Assembly (NCBI GenBank): GCA_016840165.1
Contig: JAEOSU010000080.1
Location: forward strand, 128,001 to 192,000
DNA: 64,000 nt
Source: Promethearchaeota archaeon
Lineage (GTDB): Archaea; Asgardarchaeota; Lokiarchaeia; Sigyniarchaeales; SOKP01
Direction: 5' to 3'
The position numbers and the translations under genes were made by a program. Below the pieces are notes generated by a model, which did no database searches, had not been told where the DNA came from, and saw nothing but the letters and a program-made list of their open reading frames with translations. This document shows, in pieces, positions 14,870 through 23,207 of the stretch (its first letter is position 1; every line of letters starts with the position of its first letter).

Positions 14870-15616
14870 ATGATGATGAAGCTCTTAGTAATCATTCCTG
14901 CATTTAATGAAGAGAAGACTATTGAGAATGTAGTAAAAAGTATTCCTAATATTCCTAATATAGATCAAGATGTGCTCGTTATCGATGATGGAAGCAGTGA
15001 TAATACTTTAATATATGCTAAAAAACAAGGAGCTGAGACTCGCTCAAATAGAAGAAATATGGGACTTGGTTCGGCTTTTAAATTAGGTTTAAATTATGTT
15101 TTACAAGAAAAAGTCGATTATATAGCAATTTTGGATGCTGATGGACAATATGAGCCATATGGATTAAAAAGACTCATCAATCCAATTATTAATGAAAATT
15201 ATGATTTGGTTATCGGTAATCGTTTCATTAATGGAGGATATTTTGAAGCAAGAACTATAAAACGTCTGGGAAATCTCTTTATTTCTACACTTATATCGAA
15301 AGTATTATTAAGATTAGAGATAGTCTATGATATTCAATCTTCTTTTAGGGCATTCAATAAAAAGTTAGCTATATTTATTTTAAACAATATTAACGCGAAA
15401 TATAATTATGCTCAAGAAATGTTTATTTTAGCTAGCCTATATAGATTCAGGATTAAGCAGATCCCGGTTATATGTAAAAAGAGACATTCAGGAAAATCCA
15501 GACTTATTAAAAACCCAGCTCTCCATATAGTTCGAATATTATGGGTTTGTCTTAAAACATTTATAAAAAATTTTTTTATAAGGAATTACTCTTTTCCCTC
15601 ATCAAGTCCTAATTGA
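14870..15616 (+). CDS. GT2 glycosyltransferase (DPM1-like)
   Basis: IPAFNEE, DDGSSD, DADGQ, IGNRF. Confidence 0.9.
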   Translation: MMMKLLVIIPAFNEEKTIENVVKSIPNIPNIDQDVLVIDDGSSDNTLIYAKKQGAETRSNRRNMGLGSAFKLGLNYVLQEKVDYIAILDADGQYEPYGLKRLINPIINENYDLVIGNRFINGGYFEARTIKRLGNLFISTLISKVLLRLEIVYDIQSSFRAFNKKLAIFILNNINAKYNYAQEMFILASLYRFRIKQIPVICKKRHSGKSRLIKNPALHIVRILWVCLKTFIKNFFIRNYSFPSSSPN

Positions 15617-16344
15617 GAGATCATCATTCTTTTTAAATCCTGTCTATTTTTTGGCAGCCCAAACATATCTGCATATTTGTCTGTAGTCATTAATTCATGG
15701 CTTCTTCCTTTTTTTTCTGCAGATATTAATTCATTATCAAGGAGATACTTAACATGTTCGTATGCACCAGTACCTCTAATTTTTATGACAGTTGACTTTA
15801 AAATTGGTTGCTTTAAGGCAATTATAGTAAGGGTTCTTAAATACTTTTCCGCTATCGCCCCACCTTTAGTAAATTTGGAAATAGTTTCTGTATATTCCGG
15901 TCTTAGCTGCATTTGGTAGCGCTCTCCAACTTGCGCTATGACAAGCGCACTCGAGCGATCTAAATATTCATATGCAAGTTCGGTGATTAATTCTTCCACC
16001 AACTTTTTTGAGATTTCTAGTTTAGTGGCAATTTCTTCTATATCCAATGGACTTCCAGCAGCATAAAGAGCTCCTTCAATTAAATTTTTTTGGATAATCC
16101 GAAATTCTTTATCTTCATCTAAAGTTTCTTTTTCTATTTTTTCTTCTCCAATATCCATTTCATCGCTGTCCTCACTCTCAATATCTTCGATTTGCTCACT
16201 ATCTTGATCAATAGTATCATTTATTTCAGTATCAGATTCATTATTTTCATGGGATCCTTGTTCTGGATCAGATATGGATTCAACTTCTTTTTGATTTTCA
16301 TCTTTTAAATATTCCTCAATTTGATTTTCTTCCTCATTATCCAT
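15586..16344 (-). CDS. scpB: SMC-Scp complex subunit ScpB with acidic N-terminal extension
   Basis: IEGALYAAG, TLTIIALKQPI, KIRG, TTDKYADMFGL; operon with scpA and smc. Confidence 0.92.
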   Translation of the reverse strand: MDNEEENQIEEYLKDENQKEVESISDPEQGSHENNESDTEINDTIDQDSEQIEDIESEDSDEMDIGEEKIEKETLDEDKEFRIIQKNLIEGALYAAGSPLDIEEIATKLEISKKLVEELITELAYEYLDRSSALVIAQVGERYQMQLRPEYTETISKFTKGGAIAEKYLRTLTIIALKQPILKSTVIKIRGTGAYEHVKYLLDNELISAEKKGRSHELMTTDKYADMFGLPKNRQDLKRMMISQLGLDEGKE

Positions 16345-16359
16345 GGTTTAATCTCCCAA

Positions 16360-17355
16360 TTATCTTATATTAATTATAAAATCCCTAAAATCCTCTTCCT
16401 GGTTTAAGGTTAACTTATTTCCCGTTGAGAGAAACATTAATGCTAAAAACATCCTTACAAATGCAAATCTTCTTCCAATATCAGATGGTTCTTCATTTTT
16501 AATTATTTGAGCTAAATCAAAAAAAGTAGTCTCTACACCTTCTAAGTTTATTTTTGCTTTTATTCGATTAAACCAGGACTCATGTAATTCCTCTATTGAT
16601 TGTTCTCTTCCACTGATATGCTTTAATAATTCTTTTGGTAACTGAGCTTTTGATCTCATCTGGATTTTTTGTTCTTTTAATTGTTCTCTTCGTAATCGTC
16701 TCCGCCTTAATTTCTCTTTATTTTGCATTGTTTCTATTATAGCAGAGCGCATAGCTTCGAATAACTCCTCTTTTGTTGCAATAAGCATTTTTGGCTGCAA
16801 TGGTTGAGATAATGTTTTCGGGATGGTTCTAGCATGCGATTGCCTGAACTTTTCGAGCTCCTCTTTTTTCTGTATTTCCTCCTCTTGTTTAATGATGCTC
16901 GAGATTTTATAGTGATGTAATGATGCAGAGGTTTTGAGAGCAATTCCTGAAATTTTGTAATTTATTAGACTTTCATGGAGCATGTTATCGAAAAATTTGT
17001 CTACCAGTGAAGCTAAGTCGTAAAATGCTACATTTGAATCTTTTGCGAGCTCCGTATCCAACAAACTCGAATAAGGAGGTTTTTGCCAGAATTTCAATTC
17101 CATTTTTTCCTTATACAATAAAGCAGGGTCATCATCTTCCTCTACTCCCGCAATTAATTCTTCTTCTAACTCAACTTCTTGCGTTCGATCAATAAAATCC
17201 GGGTGAGAAACAATCTCCTCCAGTAATTTAATTATATCTTTCTTTTTTGATTTAGAAGGAATTGTAATATTATTTTTTCCAGCAAAATCTCTTAATTGTG
17301 CAACAGTCCATTCAGTAAATTTGTTTTCTTCTTTAGCTTCACTTTCTTTTGAAAT
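16360..17355 (-). CDS. scpA: Kleisin ScpA with N-terminal SAP/HeH extension (probable ATT start at 17355; ORF track starts at 17118)
   Basis: DLASLVDKFF..INYKISGIAL..SASL..YK (N-terminal kleisin domain); FLALMFL...KLTLNQEEDFRDF (C-terminal winged helix); frame open to 17370 with AGGTGA 7 nt before ATT. Confidence 0.8.
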   Translation of the reverse strand: MSKESEAKEENKFTEWTVAQLRDFAGKNNITIPSKSKKKDIIKLLEEIVSHPDFIDRTQEVELEEELIAGVEEDDDPALLYKEKMELKFWQKPPYSSLLDTELAKDSNVAFYDLASLVDKFFDNMLHESLINYKISGIALKTSASLHHYKISSIIKQEEEIQKKEELEKFRQSHARTIPKTLSQPLQPKMLIATKEELFEAMRSAIIETMQNKEKLRRRRLRREQLKEQKIQMRSKAQLPKELLKHISGREQSIEELHESWFNRIKAKINLEGVETTFFDLAQIIKNEEPSDIGRRFAFVRMFLALMFLSTGNKLTLNQEEDFRDFIINIR

Positions 17356-17387
17356 TTCTATTTCACCTAATTAAAATGAATACTTAA

Positions 17388-20300
17388 TTAACTTTCCTCG
17401 ATGTTTGTGGGTACATCCGGTAATTCTAATAATTTTTTAGCCTCCTCCTCTAAATCGACGCTAAATATATCCGTTATACCACTTTGCTGCATTGTGACCC
17501 CATATATTCTATCTGCATTTACAATATTCTCTTCTCGATGACTAATAACCATGAATTGAGCTTGTTGAGCAAATTCTTTAATCACCATGCTTACTCTATG
17601 AACATTTGGACCGTCAAGGGCAGCATCTATTTCATCCATTATATAAAAGGGTGCGGGATAGAACTCCTGCACAGCAAAGATGAATGAGAGAGCTACGAGC
17701 GTTTTCTCTCCTCCACTAAGAATTTCCAAGCTTGAGATCTTCTTTCCTCTTGGTCGTGCTTCTATACTTACACCTCCTTCGAAAGGTTTATCCGGACGAT
17801 CTAAAATCATTTTAGCAGAGCCACCTGGGGATAATTTTTGAAAAATTCGCGAAAATTCTCGATTAATTTCATGATATGCTTTCATAAAAGTACGAGTTTT
17901 CTCAAGTTCAATCTTTTCTATAGCATCTAAGATAGCTTTACGTTCACGTTGGATTGTTTGTCTTCGCATATCGATCTCATCAAAGCGTTCTTTAACGGCA
18001 TCAAATTGTTCTATTGCTTTGAGATTTACAGGTTCCAAAGCATTTTTCTTTTTAGATGCTTCAGATATATCCGATTGGAGTCCAGATTCGGATAAATCAT
18101 CTGTAACAGGAGGAATAACACCATAATCTTTAGAACGATGATAAAGGGTTTCAATTTGATCTTTAGTAATTATAATTCTTGATTCATAATTATTTATTTT
18201 CGAATTTTCCATAGAATAATCTGTTTTTAAATCAGTGATTATTTTCTGATAGTTCTTTTGCTTATTCCAAGATTCATCTTTTTGTTGAATAAATTGATTT
18301 AATTCTTCTTGTTTGAGATTTTTGTTTTGTTTTTCTTGTGATAAATTCTCTTCGAATTTTTTTATTTCTATGGAGATTTTTTCAATTTCTTTCTCAGTAT
18401 CATCAATATCTTGATGTAATGCTAAAATTTTGTTTTCTCTTTCTTTATTTTTATTGATTTCATTTAAATTTCCTTGATTTTTCTGTAAATCATTATTAAG
18501 CTTATTTAGATTCTTTTGAGCGGCTTTCTGGAGCTCTATTTCTTTGCTTTTTTCTTGTCTTAATCCATCAATGATGTTTTGTATTTCATCAACTTTTGAT
18601 TGCAGGCTTTCAATCTGTTTTTTATTTTCCTCAACATTTTTCTTGCTAGCTTCAATATTTATCTTTGCATCTGAATTTTCTTTTGATAAATCCTCAATAG
18701 ACGTAATAATCATCATTATATTATCTAAAGATCTCAATTTGTTCATAGTTTCTTCTAAAATCTTATTTTGTTCGTCGATCTGAACCCTTATACTTTCAGT
18801 GTTTTCCCAAAATTTCTCCTTTTTACCAATTAATTCATTTATATTCGAATTGATGGATTCTTGTTCCCTGTTAACTGAGTCAATTTTATTTTTTATTTCA
18901 TTTATTGTCTCTTTCTTTGAGTCAATGTATTTTTTTAAATCTTCAATATTCGTCTCTATTTCAATAATACTATCAAAAAGAGATTGAATTCCCTGTAATT
19001 CTTGGAGATTTATCTGTAATTGTTCCAACTCTTTTTGTTTCGAATCGATTTTACCTTGAATTATTTCAATATTTTCCCAGTACTTAGATTTTAGATCTTT
19101 TAATTTTTTGATATCATCTTCATAATTTTCTTTTTCTTTTTCATTAATTTGATTACTCCTTTGACTTATTTCCTCTTCAGATTTACTTATAGTCTCACTC
19201 GCCTCAGAGATTTTTCTATTAACTTCATCTAATCGTTTAGTATACAGAGCAAAGTCTTCGGAATCCCGTTTTTTGTTAATATTAACCTCAGTTAATTTAT
19301 TCTCTATGGTATTTAAATCATCTGTTTGAGATGCAATGTTTAGAGAAATCGCCTCGAGTTGTTTATATAGGTCCTGACTCTTAGACATAGTTAGTTTTCT
19401 AAGAGAAATATAGACATTTTCAAGGATTTCCATAAGATCTTGAACAAAACTATCGAAGTTAGTCGTCGATTCTTGAATTTCAACATCAGCAGATTCTTTT
19501 ACTTTAGAAATTAACTGATCAATGGTAGAATCAACATTATCAGTAAATAGAGAAAGGGTTTGGAGTATTGAATTAATAGATTTCGAGGTTTCGCTTTCTT
19601 CATCAGTCTCACCACTAACGTCCTCAATGGTTTTCATAATATCTACGATATCTAATACAAATTTACGGAAATCATCAGCTGAAGTTTCAATAGCCTCAGC
19701 ATTTGATTGTTGTATATTACTCTTTATTGATTCTACACTAATATTGATATTTTGCGTTAACATATTTAGGATTTGAAGTATACCGGTTATATCTTCTGTA
19801 TTTCTCTCATATTCTTTTTCTGTTTTTTCAATTTTTAAAGAAAGTTCTTCTTTTTCTTTTATTAAATCATTTAAGCGTCTTTGAATATTTTCCTTTTTAG
19901 AAACGAGATTATTTTCGTCATTTTCTACTTTAGCGAGATTACTCTTTAGATTATTAACTTTTAACTCTGAATCACTCTTTTCTCGTTCAAGGTTTGTGAA
20001 GTCTCGGTTTACTAATTTTAATTTTGTATTTAGGTTTTCTATTTTTGCTTTGTGGTCATATATTTCTGATTCTATAGAATCTTGCTTCATTATCAATAAT
20101 TCTAAATCTTGTTCATATTTTCTGAATGTTGAATTTTCTTGTTGATATTCTTTCTTTAACTTATTTAATTCATTATTAATTGCTGATTTTTTATTCAGCA
20201 TTTCCTTTAAAACGATTTCTGTATCTTTACCCTCACTTAATTCTTTAATTCTGTTCTCAATTAATGTCTTTTTTTCCTCCATTTCCGCTATTCTCGTGTT

Positions 20301-21836
20301 ATTAATATTAATTTCCGTAGTTAAAGAGGATAAGGAGGATTGAAAGGCTAATTGATTTGAATTTAATTCACTTTGCTTATCCTGTAATTCTTTAATTTGA
20401 TTCTCTAGATTTTTCTGGTTTTGATTTTCTTTTGATATAGCTGATTTCAATTCATTTATTTTCTTTCTTATTGCGAGCTCCTCTTTTTTTGTAGCATCTA
20501 TTGCATCCTCTATACTTTCTGCCTCTCCTTTTAATTTTTTAAGATCCTCCTCTAATTTTATTTTCTTCTCTTCATTCTTCTTGATGTTCTCTTTAAGTAC
20601 TTTGATTTGAGCATTATCAGATGAAATATTTTGCTTCACATTTGAAATATCTGATTTAAACTTAGATTGTTCTTCATTTTTAAGCTTGATTTGATTATCT
20701 AAATCAGCTTGATTTTGCTGTCTTGTTTCTATTTCTTCTTTTGATTCTTCGATTAGTTTTTCAGTTTCAGAAATTTTGTTAGTAAATTCGCTTATAATTG
20801 AATCATAGGTTTGTCCCTCCTCAAGTTTCATCTGTTTATTCTCTAATGATACAATTTCTTTAGAATATTTATCAATAGTTTTCTTTGCAATTTCTAAACT
20901 GGTCTGATGAGAAGAGAGTTGAGTTTTTAATTGAGTAATATTTTCGTTAATAGTTTCTTTTTCCTTTTCCTTCTCAGTAATTGTTTTTTGGATGTTATCC
21001 ATGAGGAATGATTCCTGTTTTAATATTTCTTCTTGTCTAGTTATCCTCTCTTCCAGTTCCTCAATAATTTTGGTTGATTGCTCAACATTTTGCTGTAAAT
21101 TTTCTTCCTCCTCTTTTAATTTCGAAATCTTTAGAGCGATTAATTGAGCATTATAATATTTTATTTTTTCATCTAATTCCTTCCAAGCTAATGCATCATT
21201 CTTTTCTTTTTCAACTTTCTTCAACTGAGAGGATACCTCTTTAAAGATAGCTTCGAATTGACCCAAATCTCTCTCAGCTTTTTCTAGTTCTTTCATTGTT
21301 GCATCTTTCATTTCATCGTATTTCTGAAGGCCTATGAGTTCTTCAATAAAATCCCTTCGATTCTCCGGATTCATATGAGTCAATTCAACAATTTTCCCTT
21401 GTAAAACAAACTGATTTGTTCCATCAGGATCTATATTCGCAGTAGCTAGAGCATTTAGAATTTGCTGACGAGTTGCTCTTTTGCCATTTATTTTATATCC
21501 GCCCCCACCACCACGTTTAATTGAACGAGATACTTCAAATGTGTCACCTGGAGTAGGGAAAATATTCTCAGAATTATCGAAATATAGGCTAACCTTCGCT
21601 CTCTGAGAAGGATTCTTTCCTCTAGACCCCGCAAATATTAAATCTTCCAGACTCTTAGCTCTCATCGTCTTTTTGCTTAACCTTCCTAATGCAAATGTTA
21701 ATGCATCAATAATATTGGATTTTCCTGCTCCGTTTGGTCCCACAATGCAAGTAAAGCCACTTGAAAGCTTAATTGTTACAGTCCGGTCGCCAAAACTTTT
21801 AAACCCAGTCATTGATATTTTTTTTATGTGAGTCAT
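17388..21836 (-). CDS. smc: SMC-family ATPase with atypical central domain (start ATG 21836 or TTG 21851)
   Basis: GFKSF, GPNGAGKSN, Q-loop VLQG, PVN, LSGGEK, MDEIDAALD, ISH; followed by scpA and scpB. Confidence 0.93.
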   Translation of the reverse strand: MTHIKKISMTGFKSFGDRTVTIKLSSGFTCIVGPNGAGKSNIIDALTFALGRLSKKTMRAKSLEDLIFAGSRGKNPSQRAKVSLYFDNSENIFPTPGDTFEVSRSIKRGGGGGYKINGKRATRQQILNALATANIDPDGTNQFVLQGKIVELTHMNPENRRDFIEELIGLQKYDEMKDATMKELEKAERDLGQFEAIFKEVSSQLKKVEKEKNDALAWKELDEKIKYYNAQLIALKISKLKEEEENLQQNVEQSTKIIEELEERITRQEEILKQESFLMDNIQKTITEKEKEKETINENITQLKTQLSSHQTSLEIAKKTIDKYSKEIVSLENKQMKLEEGQTYDSIISEFTNKISETEKLIEESKEEIETRQQNQADLDNQIKLKNEEQSKFKSDISNVKQNISSDNAQIKVLKENIKKNEEKKIKLEEDLKKLKGEAESIEDAIDATKKEELAIRKKINELKSAISKENQNQKNLENQIKELQDKQSELNSNQLAFQSSLSSLTTEININNTRIAEMEEKKTLIENRIKELSEGKDTEIVLKEMLNKKSAINNELNKLKKEYQQENSTFRKYEQDLELLIMKQDSIESEIYDHKAKIENLNTKLKLVNRDFTNLEREKSDSELKVNNLKSNLAKVENDENNLVSKKENIQRRLNDLIKEKEELSLKIEKTEKEYERNTEDITGILQILNMLTQNINISVESIKSNIQQSNAEAIETSADDFRKFVLDIVDIMKTIEDVSGETDEESETSKSINSILQTLSLFTDNVDSTIDQLISKVKESADVEIQESTTNFDSFVQDLMEILENVYISLRKLTMSKSQDLYKQLEAISLNIASQTDDLNTIENKLTEVNINKKRDSEDFALYTKRLDEVNRKISEASETISKSEEEISQRSNQINEKEKENYEDDIKKLKDLKSKYWENIEIIQGKIDSKQKELEQLQINLQELQGIQSLFDSIIEIETNIEDLKKYIDSKKETINEIKNKIDSVNREQESINSNINELIGKKEKFWENTESIRVQIDEQNKILEETMNKLRSLDNIMMIITSIEDLSKENSDAKINIEASKKNVEENKKQIESLQSKVDEIQNIIDGLRQEKSKEIELQKAAQKNLNKLNNDLQKNQGNLNEINKNKERENKILALHQDIDDTEKEIEKISIEIKKFEENLSQEKQNKNLKQEELNQFIQQKDESWNKQKNYQKIITDLKTDYSMENSKINNYESRIIITKDQIETLYHRSKDYGVIPPVTDDLSESGLQSDISEASKKKNALEPVNLKAIEQFDAVKERFDEIDMRRQTIQRERKAILDAIEKIELEKTRTFMKAYHEINREFSRIFQKLSPGGSAKMILDRPDKPFEGGVSIEARPRGKKISSLEILSGGEKTLVALSFIFAVQEFYPAPFYIMDEIDAALDGPNVHRVSMVIKEFAQQAQFMVISHREENIVNADRIYGVTMQQSGITDIFSVDLEEEAKKLLELPDVPTNIEES

Positions 21837-22016
21837 CACATTATTCCTCAAATTGATTCAGATTTCTATACTTACAAGAAGATTTGAATAAAAATCATTC
21901 CAAAATCGTTGTTTATTTCTTGATTCTTTATAACTTAAAGAATTATTACAACTATATATATAATCATTATTTAAATAGTTAAGATTTTTGGAATATTTGA
22001 CTTATAAAATTAGTTA

Positions 22017-23207
22017 TTATTTGCCAAATATGGAATCTACAATCGCCTTAAGCTGTTTAGGATTAATAAATAAATAAAAAGATGTATCATCTGAAATCTT
22101 GCTAAAGATAGAACCCCTTTCAAATTTAAAACTCTTTTTAGAGATATTGATTAATCCCACACTCCTTAAATTTCGCAAAATGTCATTATATTGAGTTTTA
22201 CTGGCAATATATTCTATTGATTCACATGAGATGATATATAACTCTTTTAGCTTTTTATTAGATATGTAGTAATTAGAATTTCTTAAGAAAAAGTTTGCTA
22301 GATTATCCAGAAATATAATAATAAGGAGTTCTTCTTCAGAAATATAGGAAAGCAACGAAAATTCGTCTGAAATTTGGATGGAGTCAAATTGATTTTGAAT
22401 GAGTGAGATAAAATCTAAATGACTGATATATTTTGGATCTTTAAGAAGAGGATATAATTCTTTAAATATTTCAATTCCTTTTCCAGGCACGGGTACATAA
22501 TGTTCAAAAATTAAGTCTGTGATGTATTCAATCAATTCAATATCTATTTCGTGCATAAAAGTTAATGAAACTCTTTGTTTTAGAATATCTAATAATTCAG
22601 AATAAGAATAGAATTCTAATTTTTTTTTGTAATCAAACTCATTTAAAAGATCAAAAGTCTCACTTCGATTTACTCTATTTACTGTAGAAATTATTGTTGT
22701 TTTCGTCTCTTTTCCATAATTCAAAAATTTTTTGAAGTTTTGAGGTTTTAAATCTTCAATATTATTAAAAACCATAATCAACGGATTAGTAATTTTACTG
22801 GTTATCAGTTTAAATGTATTCCATAACTCAGATACACTAGCCTTTAAAAATGAAGTTAAATTTAGCTCAAAATTGCACATAAACGAGAGATCTGAGATTA
22901 AACCGAAAAAAATTTCATGCAGATTTTTGTCTTTACAATCTACACTAACTTCATAGATTATTGAATCCAATTGATTTTGATAGATTAGGTCTTTAGTAAC
23001 TTTATTTATTATAACTTTTTTACCTATTCCTTGCAGTCCTTGATATAGGACATTGCAACAGAAATTATCCGATAATGAATCGTTTAGAAGAGATTTAAGA
23101 TAATTCTCTTCTTTAGCTCGATATAATATTTTTGGAGGGACATAATTAACATCAAATAATGCTTTAGGACCAATATAATCATTAAATGTTTCAGATTTTA
23201 CTATCAT
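22017..23207 (-). CDS. Divergent Cdc6/Orc1-like AAA+ protein with degenerate Walker motifs
   Basis: YVPPKILYR.KE, GLQGIGKK, VDC, YSYSELLDILKQR, C-terminal winged helix (L.NLRSVGLI). Confidence 0.75.
   Translation of the reverse strand: MIVKSETFNDYIGPKALFDVNYVPPKILYRAKEENYLKSLLNDSLSDNFCCNVLYQGLQGIGKKVIINKVTKDLIYQNQLDSIIYEVSVDCKDKNLHEIFFGLISDLSFMCNFELNLTSFLKASVSELWNTFKLITSKITNPLIMVFNNIEDLKPQNFKKFLNYGKETKTTIISTVNRVNRSETFDLLNEFDYKKKLEFYSYSELLDILKQRVSLTFMHEIDIELIEYITDLIFEHYVPVPGKGIEIFKELYPLLKDPKYISHLDFISLIQNQFDSIQISDEFSLLSYISEEELLIIIFLDNLANFFLRNSNYYISNKKLKELYIISCESIEYIASKTQYNDILRNLRSVGLINISKKSFKFERGSIFSKISDDTSFYLFINPKQLKAIVDSIFGK

Follow-up and report, generated by a model that had tools for sequence, protein, structure and literature searches.

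A Lokiarchaeal SMC with a duplicated helical apex in place of the hinge, encoded beside ScpA- and ScpB-type partners

What stands at the apex of an SMC protein that has no hinge? The hinge is treated as universal in SMC proper and as important to its mechanism, with roles in dimerisation and DNA binding and perhaps as a gate for DNA. The question is raised by an operon in a 64,000-nucleotide stretch of DNA from Asgardarchaeota, Lokiarchaeia (assembly GCA_016840165.1, contig JAEOSU010000080.1, positions 128,001 to 192,000 of the forward strand; this whole stretch is called the window), in which smc, scpA-like and scpB open reading frames (ORFs) lie tightly spaced and head to tail on the minus strand. 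A preliminary description of this DNA had proposed a condensin-like module whose SMC carries neither hinge nor zinc hook. Here, the SMC is referred to as the long SMC, and its residue numbers follow the listed ORF of 1487 amino acids (aa). Our reading, to which we give a probability of roughly 0.62, is that of a paralogous Smc-ScpAB-type complex of one order of Asgard archaea (Lokiarchaeales-type), in which a duplicated helical tip takes the place of the hinge, the subunits are joined at that tip and the complex serves as a condensin-type organiser.

The hinge is replaced by a duplicated helical apex

In the long SMC, a new helical apex, conserved and internally duplicated, has taken the place of the alpha/beta hinge. 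Neither SMC_hinge nor Rad50_zn_hook in Pfam gave a match even at E ≤ 1, whether the whole protein or aa 600–950 was searched, and the hinge model (PF06470), as a positive control, detects another gene of the same genome. The motif scan agrees with the profile search and with what the preliminary description had stated of the midpoint: the protein holds one Cys only (C35, in the head), CxxC and G-x6-G-x3-GG are both absent, and only 5 Gly occur within aa 500–1000. A hidden Markov model (HMM) was also built from 14 canonical Asgard SMCs and matched to the long SMC. Its positions 1–341 fall on aa 6–345, positions 265–496 on aa 353–582 and positions 683–1185 on aa 979–1473, with no counterpart of positions 497–682, which hold the hinge. 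This pattern indicates that aa 583–978 occupy the place of the hinge, and that they consist of extra coiled coil and an acidic helical tip. The parts of the gene are as follows.

17388–21851, minus strand: SMC ORF as listed, 1487 aa, TTG start at 21851
17388–21836, minus strand: smc from the most likely start, 1482 aa from ATG at 21836 (Met6), 5 codons inside the listed ORF
21327–21836, minus strand: ATPase head, N-terminal half, aa 6–175; Walker A 38–45, Q-loop 149–153
19800–21326, minus strand: N-terminal arm helix, aa 176–684, with ~98-aa tandem repeats at about aa 304–570; aa 583–684 are an extension without canonical counterpart
19623–19799, minus strand: apex repeat unit 1, aa 685–743, aligned to unit 2 by HHalign, helical in AlphaFold2, identity 0.80
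19587–19622, minus strand: variable acidic turn at the tip, aa 744–755, mean identity 0.32 among 46 homologues, whose lengths vary here
19410–19586, minus strand: apex repeat unit 2, aa 756–814; the conserved region continues to aa 835 (nt 19347)
17982–19346, minus strand: C-terminal arm helix, aa 836–1290, with ~90-aa tandem repeats at about aa 913–1101; aa 979–1290 are the entire canonical C arm
17391–17981, minus strand: ATPase head, C-terminal half, aa 1291–1487; LSGGEK signature 1378–1383, Walker B/D-loop 1402–1413, H-loop 1435–1439

The ATG at 21836 is most likely the start, rather than the TTG at 21851, because the homologues begin with MTHIKK, MTLIKQ or MTYIKR.

The AlphaFold2 model of aa 600–920 (35 sequences; predicted local distance difference test score, pLDDT, 85.6) contains helices only and no strand, with a helix running to aa 747, a turn at aa 748–753 (pLDDT ~65) and helices at aa 754–771 and 773–907. 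The all-helical central domain of the preliminary description is thus borne out, and hinge-containing structures were matched by Foldseek and VIA-align over their coiled coils only, not over the hinge fold. The best fold match was a chemoreceptor cytoplasmic hairpin (2ch7; Foldseek E 6e-4, VIA-align Z 13.5 over 299 residues), which is likewise a long antiparallel hairpin with a conserved tip. Dynein stalk, JetC and SMC arms were found with 2ch7 at Z 12–14, a range typical for any long helical hairpin, and no credible sequence relation to 2ch7 exists; the chemoreceptor (MCP) signalling domain itself was rejected, as Pfam MCPsignal reaches just 14.7 of the 34.6 bits required and the likeness is one of fold only. 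A profile of the tip, searched against the sequences of the PDB, gave generic coiled-coil matches on the flanks and none on the core, and an ESM Atlas feature search with the tip reached a best score of 0.88 and no named family.

An absent Pfam match alone cannot separate divergence from replacement, and the region might in principle be a hinge that diverged past recognition or, as the preliminary description had itself considered, an assembly chimera. However, full-length orthologues of 1464–1497 aa occur across >120 protein clusters and some 100 genomes drawn from many studies. The clusters, at 64–99% identity, all of about 1470–1487 aa and none with PF06470, derive from Lokiarchaeia/Promethearchaeota metagenome-assembled genomes and include the original LCGC14 Lokiarchaeum. 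The tip is the best conserved part of these proteins outside the heads, and it has no beta strands and almost no Gly, while the hinge of the sister SMC is still recognisable. Both forms of this explanation are hardly credible on such evidence.

The tip comprises aa 685–835 (nt 19347–19799) and has a net charge of −18. Its two units, aa 685–743 and aa 756–814, can be aligned without a gap over 59 columns (HHalign probability 98.6%, E 8e-16), whereas controls of a tip unit against arm segments stay below 1%; the acidic domain with an internal repeat had been noticed before, and the repeat is longer than first noted. Across 46 homologues, mean identity ranges from 0.77 to 0.80 in the tip and from 0.46 to 0.61 in the arms, with hydrophobic contents of 0.37–0.39 and 0.26–0.29, respectively. 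Conservation, hydrophobic content, net charge and duplication together argue that the tip is functional. At either end of each unit lie hydrophobic faces (e.g., ILQILNML and FVLDIVDIM) that are too wide for a two-helix coil, suggesting that further helices are needed, and on the tip hairpin they form two hydrophobic patches ~40 residues apart.

Outside the long SMCs, the same module was observed in non-SMC proteins of ~920–1290 aa (P0143, P0144, P0150, P0155 and P0147; loci L131–L136, for example G178:C1:3819000–3824000), which were found only in a sister family of the host (f2) and consist of two tandem tip modules, then a beta-rich region and then a long Lys-rich tail. Another protein, P0137, has one tip module and an Ala/Lys/Pro-rich, histone H1-like tail. 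These carriers may be chromatin proteins that share the tip module. In an AlphaFold2 model of the two-module region of the f2 carriers, the modules form four long helices running up-down-up-down with loops of 3–5 residues, a topology that gives no more than a hint of side-by-side packing; Foldseek on the two-module model was uninformative (template modelling score ≤0.3).

Class of the heads, partner subunits and arms

The long SMC is a condensin-type SMC and not a ClsN, Sph, ASRP or Rad50. Its head motifs are complete and all in place, so that the fully canonical heads of the preliminary description stand, and PF02463 (SMC_N) matches at 2e-46, spanning aa 8–1460. In NCBIfam, the score for TIGR02168 (SMC_prok_B) is above the cut-off (603 bits against 567) and that for TIGR02169 (SMC_prok_A) below it (619 bits against 729). 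Head identity across the 46 homologues is 0.83 in the N-terminal half and 0.93 in the C-terminal half. Proline is absent from aa 170 to 1246, about 1070 residues, which together with the helical hairpin modelled for aa 600–920 marks a long antiparallel intramolecular coiled-coil arm.

Other SMC-like families were tried and rejected. Rad50/SbcC models give 105–111 bits against cut-offs of 700–1087, with no PF04423 match, no CxxC and no Mre11 partner; ASRP (NF045487) gives 168 bits against 300, arcadin-4 gives 27 bits against 860, and the RecN and arcadin models of NCBIfam are all far from being reached. Like Rad50/SbcC, the long SMC is an SMC-like ATPase with a small non-hinge element at the apex of its coiled coil, which dimerises Rad50 and is here presumed to act likewise; unlike it, the long SMC lacks the CxxC zinc hook and Mre11, and the genome encodes a separate Rad50 with a CPLC hook elsewhere. 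The archaeal SMC-superfamily ATPases ASRP, ClsN/coalescin, Sph and arcadin-4, some of which have no hinge, lack a ScpA/ScpB operon, whereas the long SMC ranks as an SMC proper by its TIGR02168 score and its place in the tree. A hinge-less SMC cluster with SMC-type heads, a coiled coil and no CxxC has also been reported from marine Actinobacteria (Sussfeld et al. 2025, PMC12153180); it is bacterial, and no sequence relation to the Loki tip was detected in the exhaustive search with that tip.

The operon with scpA and scpB, as first described, is upheld by three adjoining minus-strand ORFs, of which ScpB is unambiguous and ScpA is assigned on weaker scores. The features of the two partner genes are given below.

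16360–17355, minus strand: scpA-like kleisin, ~331 aa if started at ATT 17355; the listed ORF is 16360–17118, from TTG
17215–17307, minus strand: HeH/LEM/SAP-like motif (Pfam HeH, Rho_N) in the N-terminal extension of the kleisin, aa 17–47
15586–16344, minus strand: scpB (kite), 252 aa, with an acidic N-terminal tail at aa 1–85 and the ScpB domain at aa 88–238

ScpB matches PF04079 at 3e-35 (121.5 bits against a cut-off of 27.4) and TIGR00281 with 99.6 bits against 89.2. For the listed scpA ORF, Pfam ScpA (PF02616) gives 16.6 bits, under the cut-off of 24.6, but detects four of five kleisin orthologues, the best at 5.5e-4. A profile of these five orthologues matches solved ScpA structures at both ends, the N-domain in 6ivh (E 0.004) and the winged helix at the C-terminus in 5xns and 4i99 (E 0.08), and its top four PDB matches are all ScpA. 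We accept the adjoining gene as an ScpA-type kleisin on this weak but two-ended evidence. Between smc and the listed scpA, an apparent gap of 270 nt is open in the scpA frame (17119–17355) and holds no ATG, GTG or TTG; an ATT at 17355 sits 7 nt after AGGTGA and would add 79 codons, and the resulting extension is also conserved as protein sequence in a different genus (genome G144). The start of scpA is, therefore, probably the ATT at 17355 and not the TTG at 17118. The HeH/LEM/SAP-like motif in the extension was matched by Pfam HeH at 1e-4 and Rho_N at 1.2e-3, both under their cut-offs. The N-terminal add-on of the kleisin varies by lineage among long complexes: G147 and G040 have a C2H2 zinc-finger-like motif (CPYCGK...H..C), G089 a Lys/Ser-rich stretch, and this genus and G144 the HeH-like motif.

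In sum of parts, the complex shares with Smc-ScpAB of B. subtilis and Pyrococcus the head motifs, the antiparallel coiled coil, the adjoining ScpA-type kleisin and the ScpB kite, and the arm sequence is collinear outside aa 583–978. It differs in having a duplicated acidic helical tip and no hinge, in arms of ~540–570 against ~330 residues, in the HeH-like add-on of its kleisin and in the 85-residue acidic tail of its ScpB. The Gruber laboratory has reportedly swapped the hinge of B. subtilis Smc for a Rad50 hook and tuned the length of its arms. Whether hinge-deleted or hook-swapped, such B. subtilis Smc likewise pairs condensin-type heads and ScpAB with an apex that is foreign or missing, whereas the swap seen here is natural, ancient and order-wide, and comes with longer arms.

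The strands of the arm run over about aa 176–747 and 754–1290, which is ~1.6 times the canonical length, a feature absent from the preliminary description, and at ~0.15 nm per residue the arm would measure ~80–85 nm against ~50 nm in a canonical SMC. Repeats in the arms were sought by masked-window BLAST and autocorrelation, and only the recurrent offsets 90, 98, 180 and 195, plus 71 in the tip, were used, since most self-matches of coiled coil are noise without composition correction. In the N arm (20142–20942, minus strand), offsets of 98 and 195 residues recur (z 2.3 and 4.3), and in the C arm (18549–19115, minus strand) those of 90 and 180 residues (z 3.7 and 3.0); in addition, ~90 arm residues are matched twice by positions 265–341 of the canonical HMM. 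The recurrence of offsets in both arms fits matched tandem duplications in both strands. P0141, a protein of 1296 aa labelled Sigynarchaeota, is basal in the long clade and has the tip on shorter arms, suggesting that the replacement of the hinge may have preceded most of the lengthening.

Distribution and descent within Asgard archaea

An exhaustive phmmer search, with the tip as query and 1.84 billion representative sequences as target, returned 34 clusters only, comprising long SMCs, fragments and the few non-SMC carriers. The tip was located at 110 species-level genome loci, and among sampled genomes it is present in 88 of 102 in family f1, in 10 of 10 in the sister family f2, which also has the long SMC, includes closed genomes and may count cultured strains among its members, and in the one genome of family f28, all in one order. 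It was found in 0 of 7 genomes from other orders of the class and in ~0 of 124 from other families of the phylum, one junk match aside. Each tip-bearing f1 genome has exactly one tip match, and the non-SMC carriers were not found in f1.

In some groups the long SMC is accompanied, in the same genomes, by a canonical SMC of ~1195 aa with a strong hinge (E ~1e-32), which was retained in 4 of 5 genomes of genus g4, 4 of 7 of g6 and 6 of 10 of family f2. Such a strong-hinge SMC was not found in g1, the genus of the window (0 of 34), or in g2 (0/37), g3 (0/4), g5 (0/5) and g53 (0/5), and many of these genomes are more than 95% complete. In four genomes (G147, G040, G089 and G144), a long scpA and an scpB of its own come after the long smc, and in G147, G089 and G144 a short scpB lies beside the canonical 1195-aa smc, so that the whole module is duplicated. 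With no strong-hinge SMC found in g1, this genus would depend on the long complex and the possibly SMC5/6-like one.

The latter bears on whether the genome encodes a second canonical SMC: none with a strong hinge was found, and what is present is a divergent hinge-bearing SMC. In this genome PF06470 picks up a single weak hinge, which lies on contig C54 in a divergent SMC of ~1140 aa that groups with SMC5/6-like proteins and is possibly one of them. It belongs to a second SMC operon (L128 4199–10117; G000:C54:290198–296116), which comprises a 418-aa ORF, the divergent SMC (here ~1137 aa) and ORFs of 216 and 174 aa; the 418-aa ORF has a faint match to MukF_C, a kleisin winged-helix domain, and the two smaller ORFs are possible kites. 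Two SMC complexes, one canonical and one SMC5/6-related, have been described for TACK and Asgard archaea, with hints of further duplication of whole complexes in some Asgard lineages, and neither of these two studies mentions hinge loss (PMC8665677; bioRxiv 10.1101/2024.01.07.573240). A full-text literature search found no description of a Lokiarchaeal hinge-less long SMC.

A phylogenetic tree of the head domains was inferred from 35 Asgard sequences (398 columns, LG+C20+F+G4; Asgard sequences alone, no non-Asgard or eukaryotic ones), and it places the long SMC well inside the condensin-type SMCs. The long-SMC clade has a support of 100/100 and follows genus and family groups. Its sister (94/89) is the sole SMC of family f22, a protein of 1201 aa that keeps G-x6-G-x3-GG; the two together are sister to the canonical Asgard SMCs (87/74), and all three groups join at 99/97 and are split from the SMC5/6-like clade at 100/100. 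The f22 SMC (L130 771–4376, G102:C7) has a reduced hinge, matched over Pfam positions 19–71 only (21.8 bits), and no adjoining scpA or scpB. As the sister in the head tree bears a hinge, the ancestor of the long SMC had one too, and the hinge was replaced rather than ancestrally absent. A recent duplicate of the Lokiarchaeal canonical SMC within the order is disfavoured by the approximately unbiased (AU) test (p 0.02), for a group that was named after the tree had been seen. The preliminary description had placed the module in the lineage closest to eukaryotes; the long SMC is not the ancestral SMC of that lineage but a derived paralogue of one order, which co-occurs with a canonical hinge-bearing SMC in some genera.

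Having arisen as an extra paralogue beside a canonical SMC, the long complex might be a specialised system for repair, for restriction of plasmids or viruses or for segregation of an element, and not the main organiser, with the loss of the canonical SMC being unrelated. SMC-like ATPases are common in defence, and in PADLOC the heads match mad3, AriA, LmuB and JetC. These are head-level matches only, of at most 177 bits to a head model of 374 positions and at most 49 bits for JetC, against the 603–619 bits of the SMC equivalog models, and on that ground the defence ATPases were rejected as a class for the long SMC. The distribution also speaks against specialisation, as the long SMC is single-copy and near-universal in the order, its tree tracks genus and family and its heads are 83–93% conserved. 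ScpA and ScpB are always present, with no nuclease or other effector, and these two partners gave zero matches to PADLOC models. We consider a specialised system improbable.

Role of the tip and of the complex, and neighbouring genes

How might subunits without a hinge be joined? In the reading favoured here, two subunits would be joined at the tip, where the two wide hydrophobic patches of each hairpin would meet those of its counterpart to form a four-helix bundle, with zipping of arm against arm as a further aid. Chemoreceptor hairpins pair into such a four-helix bundle. An apical dimer contact is suggested by the head-like conservation of the tip, its over-wide hydrophobic faces, the chemoreceptor analogue and the tandem modules in the paralogues. 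ATP-driven engagement of the heads and the kleisin bridge would operate as in Smc-ScpAB. The acidic tip would be unlikely to bind DNA as the hinge does, and its contacts with DNA may have shifted to the heads and the N-terminal add-ons of the kleisin, here the HeH-like motif. The long complex would then be the condensin-type chromosome organiser of the cell.

A different arrangement, in which arm zipping, ATP-engaged heads and the kleisin alone hold the two SMCs and the tip serves for docking or regulation (through a loader, a membrane or cytoskeletal anchor, or folding back on heads or arms), would need no contact between tips. According to PMC5526789, hinge-less B. subtilis Smc still dimerises and arm contacts contribute to this, the AlphaFold2 monomer is a plain hairpin, and the occurrence of the module in non-SMC proteins of f2 with Lys-rich tails would suit protein–protein interaction. 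However, the hydrophobic faces at the ends of the units are wider than a two-helix coil would call for, the single module match per f1 genome leaves no module-bearing partner there, and tandem modules joined by 3–5 residue loops in the paralogues fit the packing of module against module. We regard a tip that is not the interface as unlikely.

Several points weigh against tip-joined subunits in a housekeeping organiser. We infer the two-subunit contact, and the housekeeping role from distribution alone; the AlphaFold2 monomer of the tip is a two-helix hairpin only; the divergent hinge-bearing SMC of the genome could carry some chromosome functions; the ScpA assignment was made on sub-threshold scores (Pfam 16.6 against 24.6 bits; PDB profile E 0.004); and long branches could affect both the sister placement of the f22 SMC and the post hoc AU rejection (p 0.02).

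A bolder form of the tip-joined complex can be offered only tentatively. As its homologous units are antiparallel, the tip may be pseudo-palindromic and a new dimerisation device of SMC proteins, joining the subunits either side by side, in a rod or ring of ~85 nm, or head to tail, in a structure of ~170 nm or in chains. The complex might then be a hinge-free motor that displaced canonical condensin in several Lokiarchaeal genera.

The locus provides a natural test of what the hinge is for, as a lineage of free-living archaea has kept heads, kleisin and kite, swapped the hinge and lengthened the arms by ~60%, and in several genera with the long complex the canonical SMC was not found, which we read as loss. 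If the long complex organises the chromosome, the hinge fold and the hinge–DNA contacts are dispensable for SMC function in nature, the length of the arms can be adjusted when both strands undergo matched duplications, and SMC modules can duplicate and replace one another within Asgard archaea. The trait is a derived one and should not be projected onto the eukaryotic ancestor, on which it has little bearing because the paralogous module is confined to one order. The tip is a small soluble fragment, which makes the question of dimerisation directly testable.

The neighbourhood of the long smc contains ScpA, ScpB, an Orc1/Cdc6-like gene, a glycosyltransferase and a CN-hydrolase. A 396-aa ORF at 22017–23207, also on the minus strand, is separated from smc by 165 nt on the upstream side of that gene; it has no Pfam match and only a weak one to Orc1/Cdc6 (TIGR02928, E 3.5e-12, 46 bits where the cut-off is 181). 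It was rejected as a conserved fourth subunit, as tblastn did not place it beside the long smc in four other genomes. Elsewhere in this genome (L003 1366–2970; G000:C72:18704–20308, minus strand), a protein of 535 aa was observed with an N-terminal domain of ~160 aa, a strong SMC_N head (129 bits), no coiled coil whatever and a C-terminal CxxC...CxxC zinc ribbon, and it may be a defence-type, head-only SMC-like ATPase.

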